A DNA stretch of 64,000 nt from Solirubrobacterales bacterium (GCA_019456285.1 VRUE01000003.1:1867-65866), one strand, 5' to 3'; counted from the stretch's first letter, positions 4,390 to 63,402 are shown. The notes: generated by a model from the letters alone, not told the origin. Made by a program: numbers and translations.

Positions 4390-5489
4390 GAGACCCCAGA
4401 GCGGAGGGCCTGGCGAGGATCCTGGTCGGCTACTCGACCCGGGTGAAGGAGGGCGAGGTCGTCTCGATCGACGGCGACAACGCGGCGGAGCCGCTGCTGC
4501 TTGCGATCTACGAGGAGGTGCTGAAGGCGGGCGGCCAGCCGATCCTCAACGTCTCGCTCGACGGTCAGGCGGTCTCCTACTTCAAGCACGCGAGCGATGC
4601 CCAGCTGAGCTGGATCTCCCCGGTTGCGGAGTGGATGGTCGAGAACGTCGACGTCCGGATCGCGGTCGGCGCCAGCACCAACACCCGCGAGCTCTCGGCG
4701 GTGCCGCCCGAGCGGCAGATGCGGCGGCAGACCGCGACAGGCGACCTGCTGGCGCGGGCGATGCAGCGCAGTGCCGAGGGCGAGTTCCGCTGGTGCTACA
4801 CGCTCTACCCGACCAGCGCCTACGCGTCGGAGGCCGAGATGAGCCTGGTCGACTACGAGGACTTCTACTACGGCGCCTGCCTGGCGACCGACGGCGATCC
4901 GCTCACCGCTTGGGAGCGGGCCTCGGCCGAGACGGAGCGCCTTGCGAAGTGGGTCGAGGGCCACGAGGAGGTGCGCGTCACCGCGCCCGGGACCGAGATC
5001 ACCCTCGGTATCGCCGGGCGGAAGCTCGTTCCCTGCGACGGACACCACAACATGCCCGACGGCGAGCTCTTCACCGGGCCGGTCGAGGACTCGGTGCAGG
5101 GCGAGGTGACCTTCCACCTGCCGGCGCTGATCGGCGGGCGCGAGGTATCCGGGGTGCGGCTGCGCTTCGACTCGGGCAAGGTCGTCGACGCGAGCGCCGA
5201 GCGGGGCGAGGAGTTCCTGATCGAGCTGCTCGACACCGACCCGGGGGCGCGGCGCCTCGGCGAGCTGGGGATCGGCACCAACTACGCGATCGACCGCGGC
5301 ACCCGCGAGGTGCTGCTCGACGAGAAGATCGGAGGCACCGTCCACATGGCGGTCGGGCGCAGCTACCCGGAGTCGGGCGGCGTCAACGAGTCGGCGGTGC
5401 ACACCGACCTGGTCTGCGACCTGCGCCTCGGCGGCAAGATCGTCGTCGACGGCGAGGACTTCCAGGTCGACGGCAAGTTCGTGGTGTAG
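4386..5489 (+). CDS. M29-family (AmpS/PepS-type) aminopeptidase
   Basis: 367 aa with typical M29 blocks (LARILVGYS..VKEGE.V.I, NMPDGE.FT.P, LGE.GIGTN..I, ..LLDEKIGGT.H.A.G). GTGA overlap with the pdxT stop. Confidence 0.9.
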   Translation: MRDPRAEGLARILVGYSTRVKEGEVVSIDGDNAAEPLLLAIYEEVLKAGGQPILNVSLDGQAVSYFKHASDAQLSWISPVAEWMVENVDVRIAVGASTNTRELSAVPPERQMRRQTATGDLLARAMQRSAEGEFRWCYTLYPTSAYASEAEMSLVDYEDFYYGACLATDGDPLTAWERASAETERLAKWVEGHEEVRVTAPGTEITLGIAGRKLVPCDGHHNMPDGELFTGPVEDSVQGEVTFHLPALIGGREVSGVRLRFDSGKVVDASAERGEEFLIELLDTDPGARRLGELGIGTNYAIDRGTREVLLDEKIGGTVHMAVGRSYPESGGVNESAVHTDLVCDLRLGGKIVVDGEDFQVDGKFVV

Positions 5490-9454: not shown

Positions 9455-12415
9455 ATGGGGCGAAGGCGCACGCATCTCTTCGTCCTGCTCTTCGTCCTCG
9501 GGCTGGTCGTCGCCTCGGCGCTGGTCGTCGCCAGCAAGCCGACCCGGCTCGGCCTCGACCTGAAGGGCGGGGTCGAACTGGTCTACCAGGGCACGCCGAC
9601 CGGCCAGGTGGAGACGGTCAGTGCCGAAGACATCGACCGCTCGACCGAAATCATCCGCGAACGGATCGACGAGCTGGGCGTCGCCGAGCCCGAGGTCTCC
9701 CGTCTCGGCATGACCGAGATCTCGGTCAGCCTTCCCGCCGTCACCAACGCGCAGCGGGCGATCGACCAGGTCGGAACGACCGCTCAGCTCTACTTCTACG
9801 ACTGGGAGCCCAACCTGATCGGCCCCGAGCGGGCGATCGGAGGCCGCCCCGGCCAGCAGCCGCCGACCGCCGCGATCCGCAAGGCGAACGCGGAATGGAA
9901 GGCGGCAGGCCGCAAGGTCAACAAACAGGAGAACCAGCAGCTGATCTTCTCCGGCGCCTTCCCGACCGCCTACGACGCCGTTCTGCTAGCCACCAAGCAG
10001 AAACCGGTCGAGAACTGCACGACATGCTCGGTCAACAAGCCGCGCTTCTACCTGTTCGAGGGCAAGGAGCCGCACAAGCTGATCTCCGGGCCCGAGCTGG
10101 TGAGGAAGGATCTGTACCTCACCCCCCTTGGCGAGGAGCGCCCGCGCAAGGGCATCGTGCTCGAGGTCCCGGTGGGGACGGTGGTCGTCTCCGAACTGCC
10201 CTTCGACCCAGCCGGCACGACGATCGAGGACGCGGCTCCGGGCTGGTACGCGCTGAAGGACAGGCCGGCGTTGACGGGCACCGACATCACCGACCCGCGG
10301 CAGGAATTCGACGAAGCCAACCAGCCCAACGTCTCCTTCAGCTTCACCGACGAGGGGCGGCAGGCCTTCCAGCAGGTCACCCGCGCGATCGCCCAGCGCG
10401 GCCAGGCGCAGGCGATCGGCCCGGCCTCATCGGAACAGGCCGAACAGCTCTCCGGCCGCTTCGCGGTAGTCCTCGACAACGAAGTGAAGACCCGGCCGAT
10501 CATCAACTTCGCCGAAAACCCCGATGGGATCGACGGGCGGACCGGGGCGCAGATCTCAGGCGGCTTCAACAGCATCCAGGAGGCTCAGGATCTGGCGACG
10601 ATCCTCCAGATCGGCGCCCTGCCGATCAACCTGAAACTGATCAGCCAGACGCAGGTCTCGGCGACGCTCGGCAGCCAGGCGCTGGATGCCGGGCTCAAAG
10701 CCGGGGCGATCGGCCTCGTTCTGGTCATCCTCTTCCTGCTCCTCTTCTACCGCGGCCTCGGCCTGGTCGCCTCGCTGGCGCTCGGCGCCTACGGGGTGAT
10801 CTTCTTCTCGCTGATCAAACTGATCCCGATCACCCTGACCCTGCCCGGGATCGCCGGGTTGATCCTGACGATCGGGGTGGCGGCCGACTCGAACATCGTC
10901 ATCTTCGAGCGAATAAAGGAGGAGGTGCGGGCCGGGCGGCCGATGTCGAGCGCGATCGCTGCCGGCTACCGCCGCGGCATCGGGACGATCATCGACGCCA
11001 ACGTCATCACCCTGCTCACCGCGTTCGTCCTCTTCGTGCTGGCGACGGCGGGGGTGAAGGGGTTCGCCTTCACGCTGGGCGTCGGCACGATCGTCTCGCT
11101 GCTGACCGCGGTGGTCTTCACCCAGGCGCTGCTGGGCAGCATGAGCCGCTCGCGGCTGCTGCGCTCGCCCAACCTCCTCGGCGCCGCCCAGCCGCGGGTC
11201 CGCTGGCGCTTCGACTTCATGGGGGCGAGCCGCTGGTTCTTCTCGGTCTCCGGCGCGATCCTGATCGTCGGCGCCCTCGCCCTGGCGACCGCGCAGCTCA
11301 ACTTCGGGATCGACTTCGAGTCCGGGACCAGGATCAAAGTCGCGCTGGAAAAACCCACCGACGAGGAAGGCGTTCGCGGGACGCTCGGGTCGGCCGGGAT
11401 CGACGGCGAGGAGATCCAGCGGGTCTCCGACCCGGTCTTCGGCGACAACGTCTTCCTGATCCAGACCCGGCAGTTGAAACCCGACCGCGTCGAGGGAGCC
11501 GAGTCCAGCCTCGCCGAGGACTTCGGGATCGTCGCCAACGGCTTCGACAGCACCAGCGTCGGGCCGACCTTCGGGAAGCAGGTGGCCAACAGCGCCCTGA
11601 AGGCGCTGGTCTTCTCGCTGCTGGTGATCTGCAGCTACGTCGCCTTCCGCTTCGACCCGAAGTTCGCGGTGCCGGTGCTGATCGCGGTCTTCCACGACAT
11701 CCTGATCACCGCGGGCATCTACTCGCTGACCGGCCGGGAGGTGACGAGCGGAACGGTCGCCGCCTTCCTCACCATCCTTGGGTACTCGCTCTACGACACG
11801 ATCATCGTCTTTGACCGCGTTCGCGAGAACATACCGCGGATGCCGCGGGCGGCGTTCTCGCAGATCGTCAACCGCTCGATGAGCGAGGTGCTGACCCGCT
11901 CGCTGGCGACCACCTTCTCGACCCTGCTCGCGGTCGGCTCGCTGATGGTCTTCGGCGGCCCCACGCTGCAGGACTTCGCCTTCGCGATGATGATCGGGAT
12001 CGCCTCGGGAACCTACTCCTCGATCTTCATCGCCTCGCCCGTGCTGACCGCCTGGAAGGAACGTGAGCCCGGCTTCGCGCGGCGGCGAGCCCGGATCGCT
12101 GAGATCGACGGCAGCGTGCCGGCCTTCGCCGACGAGATCGAGCTGGCGAAGCTCGGCGCCGACGACGAGGCCGACGAAGAGATCGAAGCGGCCGTAGCGG
12201 CGCGGCAGGACGCGAAGCCGAAGGCGGGAGCCGTGGCCGCGATCGGGCCGGCGGGCGACGGGGTGGGGCCGTCGGCGAACGGCGAGCCGCCCGCCGCCAA
12301 CCCGGCCTCCGCCAACCCGGCCTCCGCCAACCCGGCCTCCGCCGAGCGGCGGGAGCGAAACGCGCGCCGGCGGGCACGCCGCCAGCAGCGCCGCAAGCAC
12401 GGGAGGCATAGATGA
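9455..12415 (+). CDS. secDF: fused protein translocase subunit SecDF
   Basis: 986 aa. SecD-type periplasmic head and TM bundle (LGLDLKGGV...GALPINLKLISQTQVSATLG...) are followed by a SecF module (FDFMGASRWFF...INFGIDFESGT...DTIIVFDRVREN). The C-terminal tail is low-complexity and basic. Confidence 0.95.
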   Translation: MGRRRTHLFVLLFVLGLVVASALVVASKPTRLGLDLKGGVELVYQGTPTGQVETVSAEDIDRSTEIIRERIDELGVAEPEVSRLGMTEISVSLPAVTNAQRAIDQVGTTAQLYFYDWEPNLIGPERAIGGRPGQQPPTAAIRKANAEWKAAGRKVNKQENQQLIFSGAFPTAYDAVLLATKQKPVENCTTCSVNKPRFYLFEGKEPHKLISGPELVRKDLYLTPLGEERPRKGIVLEVPVGTVVVSELPFDPAGTTIEDAAPGWYALKDRPALTGTDITDPRQEFDEANQPNVSFSFTDEGRQAFQQVTRAIAQRGQAQAIGPASSEQAEQLSGRFAVVLDNEVKTRPIINFAENPDGIDGRTGAQISGGFNSIQEAQDLATILQIGALPINLKLISQTQVSATLGSQALDAGLKAGAIGLVLVILFLLLFYRGLGLVASLALGAYGVIFFSLIKLIPITLTLPGIAGLILTIGVAADSNIVIFERIKEEVRAGRPMSSAIAAGYRRGIGTIIDANVITLLTAFVLFVLATAGVKGFAFTLGVGTIVSLLTAVVFTQALLGSMSRSRLLRSPNLLGAAQPRVRWRFDFMGASRWFFSVSGAILIVGALALATAQLNFGIDFESGTRIKVALEKPTDEEGVRGTLGSAGIDGEEIQRVSDPVFGDNVFLIQTRQLKPDRVEGAESSLAEDFGIVANGFDSTSVGPTFGKQVANSALKALVFSLLVICSYVAFRFDPKFAVPVLIAVFHDILITAGIYSLTGREVTSGTVAAFLTILGYSLYDTIIVFDRVRENIPRMPRAAFSQIVNRSMSEVLTRSLATTFSTLLAVGSLMVFGGPTLQDFAFAMMIGIASGTYSSIFIASPVLTAWKEREPGFARRRARIAEIDGSVPAFADEIELAKLGADDEADEEIEAAVAARQDAKPKAGAVAAIGPAGDGVGPSANGEPPAANPASANPASANPASAERRERNARRRARRQQRRKHGRHR
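12296..12340 (+). repeat. perfect 3 x 15 bp tandem repeat inside the secDF 3' end (encodes ANPAS x3)
   Basis: GCCAACCCGGCCTCC occurs three times head to tail at 12296-12340. Confidence 0.9.
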
Positions 12416-12445
12416 CCGCCCCCACGACCACGCACACCTGGATGA

Positions 12446-12539
12446 CGCGTGTGGCACTGCGCATCTCTGCGTCCTCGGGCTTGCCTTTGACACCACCAAA
12501 GGCTGCACCCGGCGTCCTTGACCTGCTTGGCCACACGCG
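12446..12539. repeat. family-1 intercistronic palindromic repeat, copy A (full length)
   Basis: Closing stem CGCGTGTGGC (12446-12455) pairs with GCCACACGCG (12530-12539). Conserved arms are GCGCATCTCTGCGTCCTCGG and GGCGTCCTTGACCTGCTTGGCCAC. The central hairpin is GCCTTTG-acaccac-CAAAGGC. It aligns with copies at 24242, 33176, 36804 and 54700. Confidence 0.8.
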
Positions 12540-12577
12540 CCCCCAGTCGCACATGGCCATAGAGGCGGTCATCTGAG

Positions 12578-12841
12578 ATGGCACTGCTGGTCTGGTTCAC
12601 GATGGGCATCGCGCTCTGGCACTTCACCGTCTTCCTGCCCGACCGCTTCTGGCAGGGCATCGTCGGCGCCTTCCTCGGCTCGGTGATCGGCGCGATCGTC
12701 TTCGGCCTGATCGTCGAGGTCGCGACCGGGCGGGGACTCGGGGACACCGATCTGGTGACCGCGCTGGTGGCCGTCCCGGGCGTGGCGCTCGGCCTGGCCG
12801 TCGTCTACGCAATCGGCGTACGCGCCGAGCGGCAGGCGTAG
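12578..12841 (+). CDS. GlsB/YeaQ/YmgE-family small membrane protein (probable)
   Basis: 87 aa with two to three Gly-rich hydrophobic helices (GIVGAFLGSVIGAIVFGLIV). The pattern resembles the transglycosylase-associated/GlsB family. Assignment is by eye only. Confidence 0.6.
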   Translation: MALLVWFTMGIALWHFTVFLPDRFWQGIVGAFLGSVIGAIVFGLIVEVATGRGLGDTDLVTALVAVPGVALGLAVVYAIGVRAERQA

Positions 12842-22437: not shown

Positions 22438-22543
22438 CGGCCTGGCTGATCTTCTCGTCGGGCATGGGCGCACAAGGTTAAACGCCGCTGCGCGCCTGGA
22501 CTGAACGAAACGTCCCCTGATAGGCTTCCCCCAACATAAGCGC

Positions 22544-22658
22544 CACATCTAGAGGGGTGGAGGGACTGGCCCAGCGAAGCCCCGGCAACCACTCCGGACC
22601 ATTGGTTCGGAGAGAGGTGCCAAGTCCAGCAGGTCATCTGAAAGACCTGGGAGATGTG
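22544..22658 (+). promoter_or_regulatory. SAM-I (S-box) riboswitch aptamer
   Basis: CACATCTAGAGGGGTGGAGGGACTGGCCCAGCGAAGCCCCGGCAACC...GGTGCCAAGTCCAGCAGG...CCTGGGAGATGTG matches the S-box core blocks (AGAG.GG.GGAGGGACTGGCCC..GAA.CCCGGCAACC, GGTGC.AA.TCCAGCAG). P1 is CACATCT/AGATGTG. Confidence 0.9.
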
Positions 22659-22675
22659 GGGAAAGTCCGATCGGA

Positions 22676-22736: not shown

Positions 22737-23969
22737 ATGTCAATCGAGAGTCTGAGGTGCAAGGAGTGCGGGACGGCCTGCGAGCTGGATGCGCGCTACG
22801 TCTGCGAGAGCTGCTTCGGCCCGCTGGAGGTGGCCTACGACCACTCCTCGCTCGACCCGGCCGAGGCGAAGCGCCGCATCCAGGCCGGCTCGCAGGGGAT
22901 CTGGCGCTATGCCGACTTCCTCCCCTTCGAGGGGCGGCCCGGCGACCCGCTGGAGCCGGGCCTGACCCCGCTGCTGCGCGCCGACCGCCTCGCCGAGCGG
23001 CTCGGGATCGATGCCGAGCTCTGGGTCAAGAACGACGCCGCCAACCCGACCCACTCCTTCAAGGATAGGGTCGTCGCGGTCGCCGTCGCGAAGGCCCGGG
23101 AGCTGGGCTTCGAGACGGTCGCCTGCGCCTCCACCGGCAACCTCGCCAACGCGCTCGCCGCCCACGCCGCCGCCGCCGGCCTCGGGTCCTACGTCTTCGT
23201 CCCCGCCAATCTGGAGGAGCAGAAGCTGCTCGCCACCGGGGTCTACGGCACCAACCTGGTCGGCGTCCGCGGCAACTACGACGACGTCAACCGCCTCTGC
23301 ACCCAGCTCGCCGAAACCCGGCCCTGGGCCTTCGTCAACGTCAACCTGCGCCCCTACTACGCCGAGGGCTCGAAGACGCTCGCCTACGAGACGGTCGAGC
23401 AGCTCGGCTGGGAGCTGCCGGATCGCGTCGTCTGCCCGATCGCCTCCGGGTCGCTGTTCACCAAGGTGGGCCACGGCTTCCAGGAGTGGCTCGACCTGGG
23501 GCTGGTCGACGGCGAGCAGCCGGTCTTCAACGGCGCCCAGGCGCAGGGGTGCAGCCCGGTCGCCACCGCCTTCGCCGCGGGCTGGGAGATCTGCAAGCCG
23601 CAGCGGCCCGAGACGATCGCCAAGAGCCTGGCGATCGGCGACCCGGCCGACGGGCCCTACGCGCTGGAGCACGCCCGCCGCACCGGCGGCACGATCGACG
23701 CGGTCAGCGACGAGGAGATCCGCGACGGCATCCGCCTGCTGGCCGAGACGACCGGGATCTTCACCGAGACCGCGGGTGGGGTCACGATCGGGGTGCTGGC
23801 CAAGCTCGCCGAGCGTGGCGAGATCGCCGCCGGAGAGCGCCTCGTCGTCTACATCACCGGCGAGGGGCTGAAGACGCTCGACGCGACTCGCGATAGGTTC
23901 CGGATGCACGAGATCGACCCCGATCTCGACAGCTTCGAGTCCGAGTTCCGCCAGGCGGTAACCGCCTGA
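22737..23969 (+). CDS. threonine-synthase-family PLP enzyme with N-terminal 4-Cys zinc ribbon (possible O-phosphohomoserine-dependent homocysteine synthase)
   Basis: CKECG...CESCFGPLEV ribbon, then a ThrC-type fold (NPTHSFKDR lysine motif, ASTGN, GS...). It sits directly behind the SAM riboswitch. Confidence 0.9.
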   Translation: MSIESLRCKECGTACELDARYVCESCFGPLEVAYDHSSLDPAEAKRRIQAGSQGIWRYADFLPFEGRPGDPLEPGLTPLLRADRLAERLGIDAELWVKNDAANPTHSFKDRVVAVAVAKARELGFETVACASTGNLANALAAHAAAAGLGSYVFVPANLEEQKLLATGVYGTNLVGVRGNYDDVNRLCTQLAETRPWAFVNVNLRPYYAEGSKTLAYETVEQLGWELPDRVVCPIASGSLFTKVGHGFQEWLDLGLVDGEQPVFNGAQAQGCSPVATAFAAGWEICKPQRPETIAKSLAIGDPADGPYALEHARRTGGTIDAVSDEEIRDGIRLLAETTGIFTETAGGVTIGVLAKLAERGEIAAGERLVVYITGEGLKTLDATRDRFRMHEIDPDLDSFESEFRQAVTA

Positions 23970-24241
23970 TGCCGATCACCGTGAAGATCCCGACCCAGCT
24001 GCGCGCCGCGACCGGGGGCGAGGCCGAGATCGAGGCCTCCGGCTCGACCGTCGGCGAGGTGCTCGACGCGGTCTTCGACGCGCACGGCGACCTGCGCGAG
24101 CGGATCACCCAGAACGGCGACCTGCGCCGCTTCGTCAACGTCTACGTCTGCGGTGAGGACATCCGCTTCCGGGAGGGCCTGCAGACGCAGATCGACGAGG
24201 GCGACGAGGTGACGATCCTTCCCGCCGTCGCCGGCGGCTGA
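23969..24241 (+). CDS. MoaD/ThiS-family sulfur-carrier protein ending in Gly-Gly
   Basis: 90 aa. VKIPTQLR...GEVLDAL......L...I..........FVNVYV...DIR...GL.T.I.EGDEVTILPAVAGG stop. 1 nt overlap (TGATG) with the upstream gene. Confidence 0.85.
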   Translation: MPITVKIPTQLRAATGGEAEIEASGSTVGEVLDAVFDAHGDLRERITQNGDLRRFVNVYVCGEDIRFREGLQTQIDEGDEVTILPAVAGG

Positions 24242-24333
24242 CGGGCGTGGCACGGCGCATGTCGGCGTCCTCGGTCGCTTGTGTGCAGAGCACGCCACGC
24301 TCCCTGCGTCCTTGACCTGCTTGGCCACGCCCG
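24242..24333. repeat. family-1 intercistronic palindromic repeat, copy B (full length)
   Basis: Closing stem CGGGCGTGGC (24242-24251) pairs with GCCACGCCCG (24324-24333). It has the same arms as copy A. The central hairpin is GTGTGC-AGA-GCACGC. It starts immediately after the TGA of the sulfur-carrier gene. Confidence 0.8.
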
Positions 24334-24365
24334 CCAGCCGCGGTGCCGGGCAGCGCCCGCCGGTC

Positions 24366-25082
24366 GTGATTCTCTGTGGGGGGCGGGGGACGCGGCTGCG
24401 GGAGAGGACCGAGTCGGTGCCGAAGGCGCTGGTCGAGATCGGCGGTCGGCCGATCCTCTGGCACGTGATCGGGATCTACGTCGCGCAGGGGTTCGAGCGG
24501 TTCCTGCTCGCCACCGGCTACCTGGGGGAGATGGTCGAGGAGTTCGCCGCCGCCGAGCGTTGGCCGGCGGGGGTCTCGGTCGAGTGCGTCGACACCGGGC
24601 TCGAGACGCCGACCGGGGGGCGGATCGCGCGGCTTGCCGACCGGCTCGGCGGCGAGCGGTTCTGCGCGACCTACGCCGACGGCGTCGCCGACGTCGACCT
24701 GGCGGTGCTGCTCGGCTTCCACCGCTCCCACGGCGCCCTGGCGACGGTGACCGTGGTGCGGCCCCGCCTGCAGTGGGGGGTGGTGGAGCTCGACGGCGAC
24801 GGCCGGGTCGAGGGCTTCGTCGAGAAGCCGCGCAGCGACCGCTGGATCAACGGCGGCTTCTTCTGCTTCGAGCCGGGGGCGCTCGGGTACCTGGACGAGG
24901 ACAGCGTGCTGGAGCGCCAGCCGCTGCGGCGGCTGGCCGCCGACGGGCAGCTCCGCGCCCACCGGCACGAGGGCTTCTGGGACTGCATGGACACCTACAA
25001 GGACGCGGTCGTCCTCAACGACCTCTGGGCCGGGGGCGAGGCGCCGTGGAAGGTATGGTCGGCGGAGGTCGAGCCGCGGTGA
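24366..25082 (+). CDS. rfbF: glucose-1-phosphate cytidylyltransferase (start uncertain; TTG 24321 is the alternative)
   Basis: VILCGGRGTRLRERTESVPKALVEIGGRPILWHVIGIY and the rest align by eye with RfbF (VILAGGLGTRLSEET..KPKPMVEIGGKPILWHIM). The upstream part of the ORF is the translated repeat. Confidence 0.82.
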   Translation: MILCGGRGTRLRERTESVPKALVEIGGRPILWHVIGIYVAQGFERFLLATGYLGEMVEEFAAAERWPAGVSVECVDTGLETPTGGRIARLADRLGGERFCATYADGVADVDLAVLLGFHRSHGALATVTVVRPRLQWGVVELDGDGRVEGFVEKPRSDRWINGGFFCFEPGALGYLDEDSVLERQPLRRLAADGQLRAHRHEGFWDCMDTYKDAVVLNDLWAGGEAPWKVWSAEVEPR

Positions 25083-32066: not shown

Positions 32067-33175
32067 GTGCCGCCTACGTCCTGCTCGAAGACGGAACCCG
32101 CCTCGACGGCGAGCTCTGCGGCCATCCCGAGGCGGCGACCGGCGAGGTTGTCTTCAACACCTCGATGACCGGCTACCAGGAGTCGGTCACCGACCCCTCC
32201 TACGCGGGCCAGATCATCATCTTCACCTATCCGCTGATCGGCAACTACGGCGTCTCGGCCGAGGCGATGGAGTCGGACCGCATCCACGCCCGCGGGGCGA
32301 TCATGCGCGACGCCAAGAACTACCAGGACGCCGCCACCGCCGAGGGCGGCTGGCTGGACTGGCTCGCGGACTGCGGCGTGCCCGGGATCGGCGGCGTCGA
32401 CACGCGGGCGCTGGTCCGCCAGATCCGCGACCGCGGCGCGATGCGCGGCGGCATCTTCCCCGCCGATCTGCCCGAGGCCGAGGCGCGCGAGCGGGTCGCC
32501 GCCGAGCCATCGATGGACGGCGCCGACCTCGCACGCACGGTGACGCCGCCCGAGCCGGTTCGCTTCGAGGGGGACGGCCCGCACGTGGTCGGGATCGACA
32601 CCGGCGTCAAGACGAGCATCGTCCGGCAGCTCCGGCAGCGCGGCTGCCGCCTCACCCTGCTGCCCTGCACGTCCTCTGCCGCCGACGTGCTCGCCGAGGA
32701 CCCCGACCTGGTCTTCCTCGCCAACGGTCCCGGTGACCCGGCGGCGCTCGGCTACATCGTCGACACCGTCCGCGAGCTGGTCGGCAAGCGCCCGCTCTTC
32801 GGCATCTGCCTCGGCCACCAGCTGCTCTGCCGCGCCGTCGGCCTCGAGACCTTCAAGCTGCCCTTCGGCCACCGCGGCGCCAACCACCCGGTCAAGGACC
32901 TGACCAGCGGGCGGATTGACATCACCTCCCAGAACCACGGCTTCGCCGTGCAGGGGCCGGGCGGGGAGCCGCGGATCGAGGGCGACGAGCCGGTCCGCTG
33001 GGAGACCGACTTCGGCGTCGCCGAGCTCACCCACCTCAACCTCTACGACCGCACGGTCGAGGGGCTGGTGCTGAAGGACGTTCCCGGGGCGACCGTCCAG
33101 TACCACCCCGAGGCCGGCCCCGGCCCCCACGACGCCCGCCACCTCTTCGACTCCTTCCTCGCCCTGGCCGGATGA
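32063..33175 (+). CDS. carA: carbamoyl-phosphate synthase small (glutaminase) subunit
   Basis: VFNTSMTGYQES.TDPSY.GQI...TYP.IGNYG, and GICLGHQLL with the catalytic Cys. ATGA overlap with pyrC. Confidence 0.95.
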   Translation: MSAAYVLLEDGTRLDGELCGHPEAATGEVVFNTSMTGYQESVTDPSYAGQIIIFTYPLIGNYGVSAEAMESDRIHARGAIMRDAKNYQDAATAEGGWLDWLADCGVPGIGGVDTRALVRQIRDRGAMRGGIFPADLPEAEARERVAAEPSMDGADLARTVTPPEPVRFEGDGPHVVGIDTGVKTSIVRQLRQRGCRLTLLPCTSSAADVLAEDPDLVFLANGPGDPAALGYIVDTVRELVGKRPLFGICLGHQLLCRAVGLETFKLPFGHRGANHPVKDLTSGRIDITSQNHGFAVQGPGGEPRIEGDEPVRWETDFGVAELTHLNLYDRTVEGLVLKDVPGATVQYHPEAGPGPHDARHLFDSFLALAG

Positions 33176-33250
33176 CGCTGCAAACCTTCGCCTGCCCGCG
33201 TCATCGGTCGCTCGCGTGCAGAGCACGCCACGCTCCCTGCTTCCTTGGCA
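33176..33250. repeat. family-1 intercistronic repeat, copy C (5'-divergent)
   Basis: TCGGTCGCTCGCGTGCAGAGCACGCCACGCTCCCTGCTTCCTTGG aligns almost base-for-base with copy B (TCGGTCGCTTGTGTGCAGAGCACGCCACGCTCCCTGCGTCCTTGA). It starts at the carA TGA. Confidence 0.75.
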
Positions 33251-33292
33251 GACTCGGTTTTCGCGCCCCCGGACCAAGGCGAAAGGCAAGCC

Positions 33293-36470: not shown

Positions 36471-36803
36471 ATGCCCACCTCAGTCAAGACCTCCGCTGCG
36501 GCCCCCGAGAGATCGCTGGACCAGAGGATGGACGCGCTGAAGCGGGCAAACGGCATCCGCACCGCCCGCGCCAGGCTGAAGAAGAACCTGAAAGCGGGCA
36601 GGGACAGCATTCACGCGCTGCTTCTCGACCCGCCCGAGTACGTGATGACCGCGAAGGTCTTCGACATGCTCCTGGCCGTTCCCAAGTACGGTCGGGTGAA
36701 GACCAACCGCATCCTCAACCAGTGCCGGATCTCCCCCTCGAAGACGATCGGGGGGCTCTCCGAGCGGCAGCGGGCCGAGCTGGTGTCGCAGCTGCGCCGG
36801 TAG
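36471..36803 (+). CDS. mihF: integration host factor, actinobacterial type (mIHF/sIHF)
   Basis: RA.GIR..RA.LK..LK.G......L, V...L.A.P..G..K...IL....IS...T.GGLS..QR..L pattern. It sits directly upstream of gmk-rpoZ, as in Mycobacterium and Streptomyces. Confidence 0.88.
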   Translation: MPTSVKTSAAAPERSLDQRMDALKRANGIRTARARLKKNLKAGRDSIHALLLDPPEYVMTAKVFDMLLAVPKYGRVKTNRILNQCRISPSKTIGGLSERQRAELVSQLRR

Positions 36804-36858
36804 CGGCTGCTGCAAGCCGGCATCTCGGCGTCCTCGGTCCACCGACCCGCTTGGCCTT
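36804..36858. repeat. family-1 intercistronic repeat, copy D (short form)
   Basis: GGCATCTCGGCGTCCTCGGTCC-acc-GACCCGCTTGGCC keeps the left arm and the terminal CTTGGCC. Its central hairpin is a 4 bp GGTC/GACC. CGCTGCAAGCC after the stop resembles copy C (CGCTGCAAACC). Confidence 0.65.
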
Positions 36859-36881
36859 CGCGGCCGTTCGCGATCTGAACA

Positions 36882-38960: not shown

Positions 38961-38967
38961 TCCGGCA

Positions 38968-39053
38968 GGGAGGAGCGGCGGTCTCCTCCCCGGACTCGCA
39001 GCCCTCCGGGCTGCTCTGAGTATCCGTCCGTTGAGGAGACCGCCGCTCCTCCC
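38968..39053. repeat. perfect 21 bp inverted repeat with a 44 nt spacer
   Basis: GGGAGGAGCGGCGGTCTCCTC (38968-38988) and GAGGAGACCGCCGCTCCTCCC (39033-39053) are exact reverse complements. Each arm is itself a GGAGGAG-7 nt-CTCCTCC palindrome. Confidence 0.85.
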
Positions 39054-39090
39054 CTACGCGACAGGGCCCGCCGGCCGGGGCGCCGGAGCG

Positions 39091-53244: not shown

Positions 53245-54645
53245 CTAAAGGGGGTCTAAAGCGGGTGTAATTCCTTTCTTAGGCCTGCTCAGCGGCAGGC
53301 GGACCCGGAACAGCGCCCCTCCCGGATCGGACTCGGCTGCCTCGACCGTGCCGCCGTGGGAGGTGGCCACCGAGCGGACTATGGCGAGGCCGAGGCCGGT
53401 GCCGGGGCCGACGGCGGTGTCGGCGGGCCCGTCGCCGCGGACGAAGCGATCGAAGACCTGGGTGCGCAGATCGGGCGGGATGCCCGGGCCGTCGTCGGAC
53501 ACCTCGAGGACGGCATCGGGGCCCTTGGCGCGAAGGCGCAGCTCGATCCGCGAGCCGGAGGGCGTGTGGCGGGCGGCGTTGTCGAGCAGGTTGAGCACCA
53601 TCCGGTGCAGCTCGTCGGGGTTGCCCTCCACCGGGAGCTGGCGGTCGTTCTCGACCCGCAGCTCGCGGTCGCCCATCACCGGGGCCGCCTCGGCCGCGGC
53701 GTCGTCAGCCAGCTCGGCGAGATCGCAACGGCGGCGCTTGCCGATCCGCCCGGCATCGGCGCGGGCGAGCAGCAGCAGGTCGGCGACCAGCTGGCTCATC
53801 CGGTGCGAGGAGCGCAGGGCCGAGTCGACCATCGCCCGGTCGTCCTCCTGCCCCGGCCCCTGCAGCGAAGCCTGGAGCAGCTCCAGGTTGGCGAGGGTGC
53901 TGGTCAGGGGGGTGCGCAGCTCGTGCGAGGCGTCGGCGACGAACTCGCGCTGTTTCTTCATCGCGGTCTCGCGCTCTGCCCGGGCCGCGTCCAGGGAGCG
54001 GAGCATCTGCTCGAGGGTGCGGGCCAACTCGCCGACCTCGTCGTCCACCTTCGGCTCCGGCATCTGGCGGGAGGGGTCGCCGGTCTCGGCGATCCGGCGC
54101 GCCGTCGCGGTCAGCGAGGAGACCGGCCGCATCGCACGGCCGGCGATCGCCAGCCCCGCCATGCTGGCGAGCAGCGTGCCGCCAAGCACGCCGGCAGCGA
54201 TGAACAGCCAGAGGCGGTCGATCGCCGCGTCGATCTGCCCGAAGCTGCGCCCGTACTGGACGTATCCCGTCAGGCCGCCTACGCTGCCGCCGATCCGCGC
54301 CGTGGCGACCCGCATCCCGCCGATCTCGGCGACACCCTGGCGCGGCGGGCCGAGGCTGGCTGCATTGGTGCTCTGGGTCAGCAGCGCGCCATCGGAGTTG
54401 AAGACGCGGACCGTCGCGTCATGGGGCAGCGCGAAGTCATCGAGCCCCGGCCCGCGGATCAGGTAGGAGCCGGTCGGCGTGTCGACGATCCGCAGTTCCG
54501 CCGCCAGGGTTTGCACGGCGCCGCGCACCTCTTGGTTGAAGTCGCTTCGGATCCGCTGCGTCGCGACCCCGCCGATCACCGCGCCGAAGGTGAGCAGGAT
54601 CGCCAAGGTCAGCCCGGCCGAGGCGGTGGCGAGGCGCCAGCGCAC
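53245..54645 (-). CDS. sensor histidine kinase (TM-periplasmic-TM-HAMP-HisKA-HATPase); start uncertain
   Basis: FVADASHELRTPLTS H-box, then N, G1 (DDGPGI) and G2 (GTGLGL) boxes. The first 46 codons of the 512 aa ORF are the translated family-1 repeat, so I prefer GTG 54645 (MRWRLATASAGLTLAILLTFG...). Confidence 0.85.
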   Translation of the reverse strand: MRWRLATASAGLTLAILLTFGAVIGGVATQRIRSDFNQEVRGAVQTLAAELRIVDTPTGSYLIRGPGLDDFALPHDATVRVFNSDGALLTQSTNAASLGPPRQGVAEIGGMRVATARIGGSVGGLTGYVQYGRSFGQIDAAIDRLWLFIAAGVLGGTLLASMAGLAIAGRAMRPVSSLTATARRIAETGDPSRQMPEPKVDDEVGELARTLEQMLRSLDAARAERETAMKKQREFVADASHELRTPLTSTLANLELLQASLQGPGQEDDRAMVDSALRSSHRMSQLVADLLLLARADAGRIGKRRRCDLAELADDAAAEAAPVMGDRELRVENDRQLPVEGNPDELHRMVLNLLDNAARHTPSGSRIELRLRAKGPDAVLEVSDDGPGIPPDLRTQVFDRFVRGDGPADTAVGPGTGLGLAIVRSVATSHGGTVEAAESDPGGALFRVRLPLSRPKKGITPALDPL

Positions 54646-54699
54646 CGGCCAGCTGCGCGGGCGCAGCCGGCGGCGAGGAGACGACAGCCCCGGATCGCT

Positions 54700-54765
54700 G
54701 CCATACGGCGTCCTCAGTCGCCCGAATAGCGCCGCTATTCGGGCGCCCTGCGTTCTTGCCTGGCG
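54700..54765. repeat. family-1 intercistronic repeat, copy E (opposite orientation relative to the operon)
   Basis: GCCATACGGCGTCCTCAGTCG, then the 12 bp hairpin CGCCCGAATAGC-gcc-GCTATTCGGGCG, then CCCTGCGTTCTTGCC. It has the same arm order as copies A-D on the + strand, but the flanking genes are on the - strand. Confidence 0.7.
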
Positions 54766-54811
54766 GCGCCTGGGCCTCGTCATCTCCCGGTCACCGTCAC
54801 CAGACAGGGCA

Positions 54812-55513
54812 CTACTCCTTGAGCACGTAGCCGGCGCCGCGCTTGGTGTGGAGAAGGCGGGGCTCGCCGCCGGCCTCCAGCTTGCGGCGCAGGTTGGAGA
54901 CGAAGACGTCGACCGTGTTGGTCGCCGCCGTCGGGTCGTAGCCCCAGACCTCGTCGAGCAGCCGCTCCCGCGAGACCACGAGGCGCTCGTTGCGCATCAG
55001 GTGCTCGAGCAGCTCGAACTCGCGGTTGGTCAGCTCGACCTCCCGCTCGCCGTGCCGCACCTCGCGGGTGTCGGGGTTGAGCAGCAGGTCGCCGACGCTC
55101 AGCGTGGCGGCGCCGCGCGGCGGCCGGCGGCGCAGCAGGGCCCGGATCCGCGCCAGCAGCTCCCGCCGCTCGAACGGCTTCACCAGGTAGTCGTCGGCGC
55201 CGCTGTCGAGGCCGTCGACCCGGTCCTCGGTCTCCGTCCGCGCGGTCAGCATCAGGATCGGGACGTCGCTGTCGGCCCGCAGCCGCCGGCAGACCTCGAC
55301 CCCGTCGAGGCGCGGCAAGCCGAGGTCGAGCACGACGAGGTCGGGGGCGAAGCCGGCCGCGGCGTCGAGGGCGTCGATGCCGTCGGCCGCGGTGTGCACC
55401 TCGTAGCCCTCGCCGCGCAGCGAGCGTCGCAGCACGTCGGCGATCTCGGCGTCGTCCTCGACGACGAGCACCCGTCCCCCTGCCGGATCGGCGGTGACTG
55501 TCTGCATCGTCAC
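54812..55513 (-). CDS. OmpR/PhoB-family response regulator
   Basis: RVLVVEDD..I, DLVVLDLGLP..DG, ILMLTA, DDYL.KPF receiver motifs, plus a winged-helix C-terminal domain (LT.REFELLE.L..N...V.SRE.L...VWG). Confidence 0.93.
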   Translation of the reverse strand: MTMQTVTADPAGGRVLVVEDDAEIADVLRRSLRGEGYEVHTAADGIDALDAAAGFAPDLVVLDLGLPRLDGVEVCRRLRADSDVPILMLTARTETEDRVDGLDSGADDYLVKPFERRELLARIRALLRRRPPRGAATLSVGDLLLNPDTREVRHGEREVELTNREFELLEHLMRNERLVVSRERLLDEVWGYDPTAATNTVDVFVSNLRRKLEAGGEPRLLHTKRGAGYVLKE

Positions 55514-63346: not shown

Positions 63347-63402
63347 GTAGAGCCCCGGGGAAGACGAGCGCGGACTCGCGCTTGTCTTCCCCGCGGCTCT
63401 AC
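63347..63402. terminator. long imperfect hairpin between the sugar dehydrogenase stop and the aldehyde dehydrogenase start
   Basis: GTAGAGCC.CGGGGAAGACGAGCGC / GCGCTTGTCTTCCCCG.GGCTCTAC gives about 24 paired positions. There is no U-tract, so its function as a terminator is uncertain. Confidence 0.4.

Follow-up and report, generated by a model that had tools for sequence, protein, structure and literature searches.

What recurs between the genes of a Solirubrobacterales bacterium: a folded RNA held in place by selection, or a piece of mobile DNA? This question is raised by a 64-kb stretch of DNA (GCA_019456285.1 VRUE01000003.1:1867-65866; 70% G+C; hereafter the window), for which an original prediction, made from the sequence alone, described one palindromic element in five intergenic spacers. 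The five copies, all found on the + strand by a model trained on foreign copies, are named A (12411-12577), B (24236-24340), C (33168-33275), D (36800-36872) and E (54678-54785). They belong to what is apparently an undescribed repeat family, restricted to the class Thermoleophilia, whose insertions lie at gene ends and stop/start junctions and are co-oriented with the upstream gene. We think it probable that the copies are a non-autonomous mobile DNA palindrome, an interspersed repeat of Thermoleophilia resembling miniature inverted-repeat transposable elements (MITEs) and mycobacterial interspersed repetitive units (MIRUs). It is also reasonably likely that the family, though new, is of a familiar selfish-repeat kind and is not a new regulatory RNA.

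Extent and anatomy of the family

An exact-pattern scan for both arms of the element, with one genome per species, yielded at least 119 loci in public genomes, with at least ~65 true members among the matches listed. All of the true members came from Solirubrobacterales, Thermoleophilaceae, Gaiellales or unclassified Thermoleophilia/Actinomycetes metagenome-assembled genomes (MAGs); the remaining pattern matches were chance occurrences within genes of other phyla. The original prediction had left the count of further copies to the full genome and its relatives. Trained on 24 copies from other genomes and on none from the window, a covariance model (R1) returned 86 matches in 572 kb (69 fetched loci, given L numbers here, plus the window). 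Around 15 of the R1 copies fell outside the pattern selection, and their arms were still almost intact. The densest loci were L041, with four copies in 8 kb, and L003 and L074, with three each. Clustering of 88 copies by tblastx of their flanks gave 36 clusters at a loose threshold, which lumped 48 copies via high-GC noise, and 77 at a strict one; the true number lies between. Most copies are thus at distinct loci, and the orientation counts given below are not driven by orthologues.

The family is unmatched in Rfam, in line with the prediction, which could match the sequence to no named family. At the gathering threshold, Rfam 15 recognized only an S-adenosylmethionine (SAM) riboswitch and tRNA in the window, and permissive scans of A and B gave chance-level matches to eukaryotic miRNA and lncRNA families only. 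Full-text literature searches turned up no description of Solirubrobacterales or Thermoleophilia repeats or RNA motifs, nor of MITEs with translational coupling. A plasmid collection gave no family match. One genuine copy, of the GCTGCAAACC/GGTTTTCGC stem subfamily, was seen at 581-680 of L207 (IMG/VR contig IMGVR_UViG_3300026300_000009), a 15.7-kb contig classed as viral that may be a prophage or a misclassified host fragment.

Each unit is 95-170 nt long and forms, from end to end, one imperfect hairpin. The outer stem (P1, 10-17 bp) is variable in sequence among copies, with its complementarity kept, and has a conserved inner foot, CCGG-C-GCA / UGC-UUGG, in which there are two tandem G.T (G.U) pairs and a bulged C. 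The helix P2 covaries, one of its pairs being A-U in 41 copies, C-G in 23, U-A in 11 and G-C in 6. The two strands of the internal loop read alike 5' to 3', GCGTCCTCGG on the left and (CCCT)GCGTCCTTGAC on the right; conservation in the family peaks at these arms, which are direct repeats of GCGTCCT(C/T)G that face each other. They are followed by a short helix (P3) and a terminal hairpin (P4), which occurs in a few types, is absent in D and L029 and is expanded in L030 and L011. The only strand-asymmetric features that are conserved are the tandem G.T, the bulged C and the two direct arms.

The preserved pairing that had been claimed for the five copies is borne out in the larger set: in the model-fitted alignment, 83.7% of the cells are paired, compared with 33-47% when partners are slid, and 32 of the 33 modelled pairs are changed on both sides. 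A gapless hand alignment gave 83.1% compared with 33-42%. RNAalifold, run on a plain MAFFT alignment, missed the outer stems because the stem sequences are unalignable; a hand-set structure (gapless subset) and the covariance model were used instead. The closing stems of A (CGCGTGTGGC/GCCACACGCG) and B (CGGGCGTGGC/GCCACGCCCG) do carry two compensated differences, and the central hairpins read as described, with B and C differing by T.G versus C-G.

Selection on a folded RNA had been among the readings offered for these compensatory changes, and here the counts point elsewhere. RNA selection on the transcribed strand would make G.U pairs greatly outnumber A.C mismatches. In P1 (24 gapless short copies), 288 of the 326 cells are Watson-Crick, 7 are G.U and 10 are A.C; in P4 (85 copies), 448 of 460 are Watson-Crick, 2 are G.U and 7 are A.C. 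With no excess of G.U, the palindrome behaves as strand-symmetric, which favours maintenance at the DNA level over RNA selection. The prediction's own caveat, that arm-to-arm conversion in a DNA palindrome could produce the same pattern, fits this lack of a G.U excess.

Insertion at gene ends and stop/start junctions

The direction of flanking genes was assigned with a frame test on codon-position G+C content (GC3/GC1>GC2), validated against genes already known in the window. In 62 copies the element points the same way as the upstream gene, and in 11 the two are opposed. Where both flanking genes lie on one strand, 37 copies are on that strand and 5 on the opposite one. Convergent spacers hold 16 copies and divergent spacers 4, so that promoter spacers are avoided. 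Relative to the left arm, the upstream stop codon clusters at -28 to -31 (the P1 foot) and, in long copies, at -59 to -67; a third cluster at -19 to -22 is the TGA within the inner-stem CTGACC.

Orthologous junctions are filled in some relatives and empty in others, as the suggestion of a miniature mobile element would have it. In the ribosomal-protein operon of L041, modules of ~165 nt occupy both S8|L6 and L6|L18. No copy was present in 80 metagenomic loci encoding an L6 protein 54-89% identical to the L041 one; there, the genes at L6|L18 overlap by 4 nt (ATGA) or are separated by a few nt, and the S8|L6 spacer spans 3-25 nt. At thiS|rfbF, the window, L033 and L054 have a filled junction, L029 carries a centre-deleted copy and L201 a degenerate, barely recognizable one, and in L205/L206 the junction is empty and the genes overlap. 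The outer stem of copy B is absent from the empty site. The stem therefore arrived with the insertion, which speaks against an element that targets pre-existing hairpins. At the same junction, L202-L204 (~10274-10335) have a 12-bp hairpin unrelated to the element, GACATTGACCCC-ACGGTA-GGGGGGTCAATGTC, that lacks the family core and could be another small repeat or a footprint.

Another pair of filled and empty sites is at rfbF|epimerase, where the close relatives L205 and L206 have flanks that are 96% and 92% identical and, between the anchors, 7 nt (GCGGTGA) in L205 versus 171 nt in L206. The single GTGA stop/start overlap of L205 is present at both ends in L206, 164 nt apart, and together they bound a frame of 55 codons, opened by the first GTG and closed by the second TGA. 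A MazE-PIN toxin-antitoxin pair was also noted in L205/L206 (~11996-12830), between the epimerase and SRAP genes; it is absent from the gene lists of the syntenic L201 and L202.

Copy number differs as well, with 0-1 copies in syntenic 20-kb stretches of relatives versus three in the window, and decay is visible in the window itself, where C, D and E are degenerate. Filled and empty sites together with these degenerate copies indicate the turnover of a mobile or selfish repeat, as opposed to an indispensable site. A search of the fetched loci for split copies flanking cargo gave only a truncated left half in L064 (~4925-4975, - strand). This half copy (TGATCGGCGCATATCGGCGTCCTCGGTCG) stands directly after a stop codon and is followed by A+T-richer, promoter-like sequence (TTGACT...) and then by the next gene.

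Window copies, long copies and the 54-codon frame

The sequences of all five spacers read as originally described, and R1 recognizes B (97.0 bits), C (70.6 bits), A (54.3 bits at 12438-12549) and E (32.4 bits, E=1.8e-5, on the + strand versus 8.9 bits on the - strand), with D at 17.5 bits (E=0.065). No other convincing copy was found by the covariance-model scan of the 64 kb. An nhmmer profile of A and B alone recovered C (E=1.7e-6), while D (0.51) and E (3.2) were not significant. Three copies have an exact left arm GCGTCCTCGG: A (12469-12478), B (24265-24274) and D (36828-36837). Alone, this 10-nt arm is not unusual: with one mismatch permitted, the window contains 39 matches against 29.8 expected. 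Two occurrences of the 23-mer right arm GCGTCCTTGACCTGCTTGGCCAC, in A and B, compare with 0 expected from 100 shuffles. Unusual folding energies are seen in A (z -4.1), B (z -4.9) and E (z -2.8), and ordinary ones in the degenerate C and D.

Copy A had been placed at 12446-12539. The element is there and is larger, being a long ('type 2') module that fills the entire spacer between secDF and the next gene. Its outermost helix pairs 12411-12421 with 12563-12573 and its P1 pairs 12446-12455 with 12530-12539; inside these are the left arm, the hairpin (12483-12489 with 12498-12504) and the right arm GCGTCCTTGAC (12512-12522). The stretch 12406-12585 folds as a single hairpin (dG -76.2 kcal/mol) that reaches from the secDF stop codon (12413-12415) to 4 nt short of the next ATG. 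Downstream of SecDF are a small membrane protein and then RecJ. SecD and SecF are fused here in one 986-aa open reading frame (ORF; 9455-12415, + strand), whose tail is of low complexity, with ANPAS repeats followed by an Arg/Gln/Lys run.

Copy B is the best-preserved short ('type 1') copy, with P1 at 24242-24251 and 24324-24333 and arms at 24265-24274 and 24306-24316 (dG -61.5 kcal/mol, z -4.89). It lies between a ThiS-like gene (stop TGA 24239-24241) and an NTP transferase gene. Copy C, between CarA (stop 33173-33175) and CarB, both identities being confirmed, has an outer stem of the GCTGCAAACC/GGTTTTCGC subfamily and a central hairpin that does not differ from the family consensus, with degenerate arms (GCGTCATCGG, 33198-33207; GCTTCCTTGGC, 33239-33249) and no P2. 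Copy D, between a MihF-like gene (H2TH; stop TAG 36801-36803) and gmk (36882), is internally deleted: it retains its outer stem, GGCATCTCG, the left arm and GACCCGCTTGG, while P3, P4 and most of the right arm are gone. A similar central deletion is found at the thiS site of L029. All five copies are thus present as predicted, and not all of them are full. The diverged copy E has the arms GCGTCCTCAG (54708-54717) and GCGTTCTTGCC (54750-54760) around a 12-bp CGCCCGAATAGC hairpin, a type that recurs in L034:6323-6433, L082 and L074:85-195. Unlike A-D, E is antisense to the transcription of its minus-strand operon (response regulator, 54812-55513; histidine kinase, 53245-54783) and lies within the longest kinase ORF.

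A conserved Shine-Dalgarno (SD) sequence and ATG had been proposed on the reverse strand. The motif arises by complementarity to the left arm together with the CAT of P2, where the A-U pair is found in only 41 of 85 distinct copies, and so does not characterize the family. As a functional start it was rejected: the ATG is absent in other subtypes (GCCGG/GCTGG), and that of E is out of frame with the kinase ORF. The right-arm TTG(A), considered as a built-in restart, was likewise set aside, since open-frame counts for type-1 copies looked near chance. In B and C the TTG shares the reading frame of the downstream gene. In C (33173-33292), the carA stop and carB share a frame, the element is open throughout, and the longest carB ORF begins at the right-arm TTG (33245). 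In B (24306-24366), the right arm reads CCUUGAC, with the TTG overlapping a TGA and in frame with the NTP transferase. The start-codon calls of both downstream genes are therefore uncertain.

Short copies such as B and C consist of the P1-to-P4 architecture only. In long copies such as A, the arms are 43 nt apart and further helices extend outward to common termini, 5'-(T)AGATGAYYGAYYCC... and ...GGRRTCRRYCATCT(A/G)(G/A)-3'; the ends of A agree with the AGATGAYYG...CRRTCATCT of other long copies. The idea that the long copies are all secDF orthologues was rejected, as their flanking genes differ, and the termini therefore belong to the element. In the ribosomal-protein operon of L041, long copies stand at S3|L16, S8|L6 and L6|L18, and in the outermost helix the sequence after the upstream stop pairs with the SD/start region of the next gene (for example UAAUGUCCGCUCCUUCC with GGAAAGGAGCGGACAUUG).

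The 5' end of a long copy supplies stops in two frames and an ATG, and the 3' end a stop beside the downstream start. Across copy A this gives a 54-codon ORF (12412-12576, + strand), whose ATG overlaps the secDF stop (ATGA) and whose TGA ends 1 nt before the ATG of the gene at 12578. Long-copy frames (~54 codons) open at the upstream stop or a few nt from it (ATGA, TAATG, TAG-N-GTG) and close at the downstream start or a few nt from it (TGATG, TTGA, TGAgATG). The openness of the frame is not demonstrably selected, and the terminal placement of starts and stops is the consistent part.

Some neighbouring features of the window stand apart from the family. The SAM riboswitch (RF00162, 85 bits, 22542-22660, + strand) is directly upstream of a PALP-domain enzyme (ORF end 23969), which is followed by the ThiS-like sulfur carrier (23969-24241), with the same gene order in relatives; this arrangement suggests a SAM-controlled, sulfur-carrier-dependent step of Cys/Met synthesis. 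Between coaBC and rimP-nusA there is a long near-perfect hairpin, GGGAGGAGCGGCGGUCUCC...GGAGACCGCCGCUCCUCCC (38965-39058, both strands), that matches the model on its stem alone (18 bits), without the family core, and could be a terminator or belong to some other palindromic repeat. Another hairpin, short and perfect (CGGGGAAGACGAGCGCGG..UCGCGCUUGUCUUCCCCG; 63353-63398, both strands), is probably an intrinsic terminator and not a family member.

Competing explanations and known repeat systems

If the copies are mobile DNA, an enzyme acting in trans would read the asymmetric core from a single strand and place the unit at stop or stop/start sites of the NTGA type, and this one-strand recognition with an NTGA target would also set the orientation to the upstream gene. 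The conserved tandem G.T, bulged C and direct arms may be the recognition surface for the mover. Stem complementarity would be kept by a DNA-level process, with one arm copied from the other or correction within the hairpin, and copies would survive where the harm is small. Once co-transcribed, the element could zip the spacer shut and bring the upstream stop beside the downstream ribosome-binding site; in long copies, the predicted full-spacer fold does pair the stop region with the SD/start region. The hairpin base, a relay ORF or both might then keep the downstream cistron translationally coupled, and the element may be tolerated because the hairpin and the terminal start/stop signals do so. 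In its strongest form, the element would home to stop codons, with the asymmetric core as the handle of a strand-specific enzyme, and would carry its own coupling cassette to bridge termination and re-initiation. We regard this form as doubtful. The proposed cassette could comprise the two-frame stops, the start, the relay ORF and, in some copies, an anti-SD/SD pair. Such a hairpin might also have been co-opted to tune operon stoichiometry.

Several observations weigh against a mobile DNA palindrome. The ~1.2 Mb of fetched sequence yielded neither an autonomous partner nor a transposase bearing these ends, so that mobilization is deduced from insertion polymorphism alone. Whereas ordinary MITEs are most conserved at their termini, here the interior is conserved and the outer stems differ yet remain complementary. 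In L206, three substitutions adjoin the left junction; the target duplication is clean in this pair alone and ambiguous at other filled junctions. The orientation bias could instead reflect RNA selection or replication direction, and 5/5 window copies are on the + strand, which GC skew suggests is the leading strand. In a strict test, relay ORFs were found in 9/17 long copies versus 5/17 with the interior inverted in place, which is not significant. The census of the 54-codon frame in public gene calls (below) sees open frames only.

We consider it unlikely that the element is instead a cis-acting RNA, with the GCGUCCU loop as a site for an RNA-binding protein or RNase (RNase III-type processing or a REP-like 3' stabilizer) that sets the relative expression of adjacent cistrons, and with RNA-selected stems. 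Such a role would suit the nearly invariant loops amid highly variable, covarying stems, the strong downstream, co-oriented bias with avoidance of promoter spacers, and the tandem G.U and bulged C, which pair on the + strand only. It would also suit the orthologous retention of copies with partly compensated stems (L006/L024/L087/L097; B/L033/L054/L029) and the presence of copies within unbroken ribosomal-protein operons. However, the variable stems show no G.U enrichment, and close relatives differ at one and the same junction, where the element is present, absent or decayed. The hosts (secDF, thiS, carAB, gmk, a two-component system and ribosomal proteins) have no common function, degeneration affects three of the five window copies, E runs antisense to its operon, and Rfam has no match. 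A secondary, domesticated role of a mobile element is a possible variant, one that the evidence does not require. Far less credible, to the point of being very improbable, is a small protein-coding gene family in which the 54-aa ORF is functional and the palindrome incidental. Public gene calls do include 111 clusters related to the window ORF, nearly all exactly 54 aa and unnamed or 'hypothetical', with M1 and I54 invariant. Residues 2-7 and 48-53, however, vary freely, as does the outer helix, and replacements track the compensatory changes of the hairpin (LAPPK -> LQPAK -> ARVLKAHF) and are non-conservative, which places the constraint on the nucleic acid and not on the peptide. In addition, short variants meet a TGA in the right arm in the ORF frame, in another long copy the arms are read in a different frame, there is no Pfam match, and the census is skewed to open frames.

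A more specific version of the mobile-element explanation, which we judge quite improbable, is a single-strand-DNA element of the IS200/IS605-PATE type or of the type of repetitive extragenic palindromes (REPs) and their RAYT genes. Here an HUH (Y1) enzyme would read small hairpins formed by one of the strands, with insertion on the 3' side of a fixed tetranucleotide, and neither true terminal inverted repeats nor a target duplication would be expected. The conserved features are indeed strand-asymmetric (tandem G.T, bulged C, non-palindromic arms), the copies come after (A/G)TGA or TGA on one strand, and the five in the window share one DNA strand whatever the gene direction. Furthermore, in several minimum-energy folds the arms can form the 3' halves of small direct hairpins (GGCGC-loop-GCGUC; ACGC-UCCCU-GCGU). 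These compete, however, with the long palindrome and its covarying long-range helices (four pair types in P2), and the GTGA at both ends of L206 looks like a duplication. A GTAG-type REP head is lacking from the consensus of the family alignments A1-A3, and no Y1 transposase gene was seen near copies, although no systematic search was made.

Comparison with known systems places the family, by behaviour, among MIRUs and hairpin-forming MITEs; the defining features of REPs, attC sites and Rfam families are absent. Its units are within MITE size (<~400 bp, no transposase gene), their only ORF being the 54-codon frame. Terminal inverted repeats are provided by the end-to-end complementarity (AGATGAYYGAYYCC...GGRRTCRRYCATCT in the long variant), with termini that differ between subfamilies, and filled and empty orthologous sites occur at S8|L6, L6|L18, thiS|rfbF and rfbF|epimerase. 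MIRUs are reported to occupy operon spacers, have tetranucleotide direct repeats and carry ORFs that overlap neighbouring genes (Supply et al, 1997, as summarised in PMC3184786). The family resembles them in its actinobacterial host, operon spacers, probable co-transcription and filled and empty sites, with a tetranucleotide (GTGA) repeated at both ends of the filled site in the L205/L206 pair, and an ORF overlapping the stop and start of its neighbours is found in the window (12412-12576), the three long copies of L041 and L206. The resemblance to MIRU and REP elements raised in the original prediction is therefore apt with regard to the intercistronic or 3'-proximal position and the MIRU-like ORF overlaps. 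MIRUs, compared here by description, are 40-100-bp units of Mycobacterium, often in tandem arrays, and are not long end-to-end palindromes, whereas this family has single units (73-167 nt at the five window sites), each one hairpin with a conserved asymmetric core, in Thermoleophilia hosts. Membership proper in the MIRU family fails on unit architecture and host.

The Correia/NEMIS elements of Neisseria and the Nezha elements of cyanobacteria are hairpin-forming, transcribed MITEs that are predicted to give very stable RNA stem-loops and often fuse to or abut ORF ends (PMC3184786). Like them, the family is small, lacks a transposase gene, has terminal inverted repeats and is multi-copy and polymorphic between relatives. 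In Correia/NEMIS and Nezha, conservation is in the termini, which correspond to those of a known insertion sequence, and there is a defined target duplication such as TA. In contrast, this family conserves its interior core, and its target looks like a stop or stop/start site. As with REPs and bacterial interspersed mosaic elements (BIMEs), its palindromes are extragenic, lie in transcribed (convergent or co-directional) spacers, often near stop codons, and are rare at promoters. REP/BIME sequences probably act on mRNA 3' ends and influence how the upstream gene is translated. REPs are, however, only 20-40 nt long, with a GTAG-type head and ties to RAYT genes, while the family is 3-5 times longer and strongly orientation-biased. 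The attC cores (RYYYAAC/GTTRRRY) are absent on reading the hairpin feet, which are locus- or subfamily-specific, and the hosts are housekeeping operons and not cassette arrays. With the IS200/IS605 PATEs the family could share two small direct hairpins and a preceding (A/G)TGA, yet it has the long covarying palindrome and GTGA at both ends.

Thermoleophilia are abundant soil actinobacteria known mostly from MAGs, and literature searches gave no description of their repeats. For their annotation, the family adds hairpins of 100-170 nt to many operon spacers, is the source of at least 111 clusters of spurious-looking 54-aa 'hypothetical proteins' and can mislead the calling of downstream starts, such as those of rfbF, carB and the kinase in the window. 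It also carries a caution, as compensatory changes in a palindromic repeat are not by themselves evidence of RNA selection. Overall, it provides a natural case of a repeat that inserts at coupled gene junctions, ribosomal-protein operons included, with function apparently kept. How coupling persists despite a stable hairpin (computed dG ~-80 kcal/mol) is a directly testable question, and a coupling cassette, if true, would allow the colonization even of ribosomal-protein operons without breaking them.

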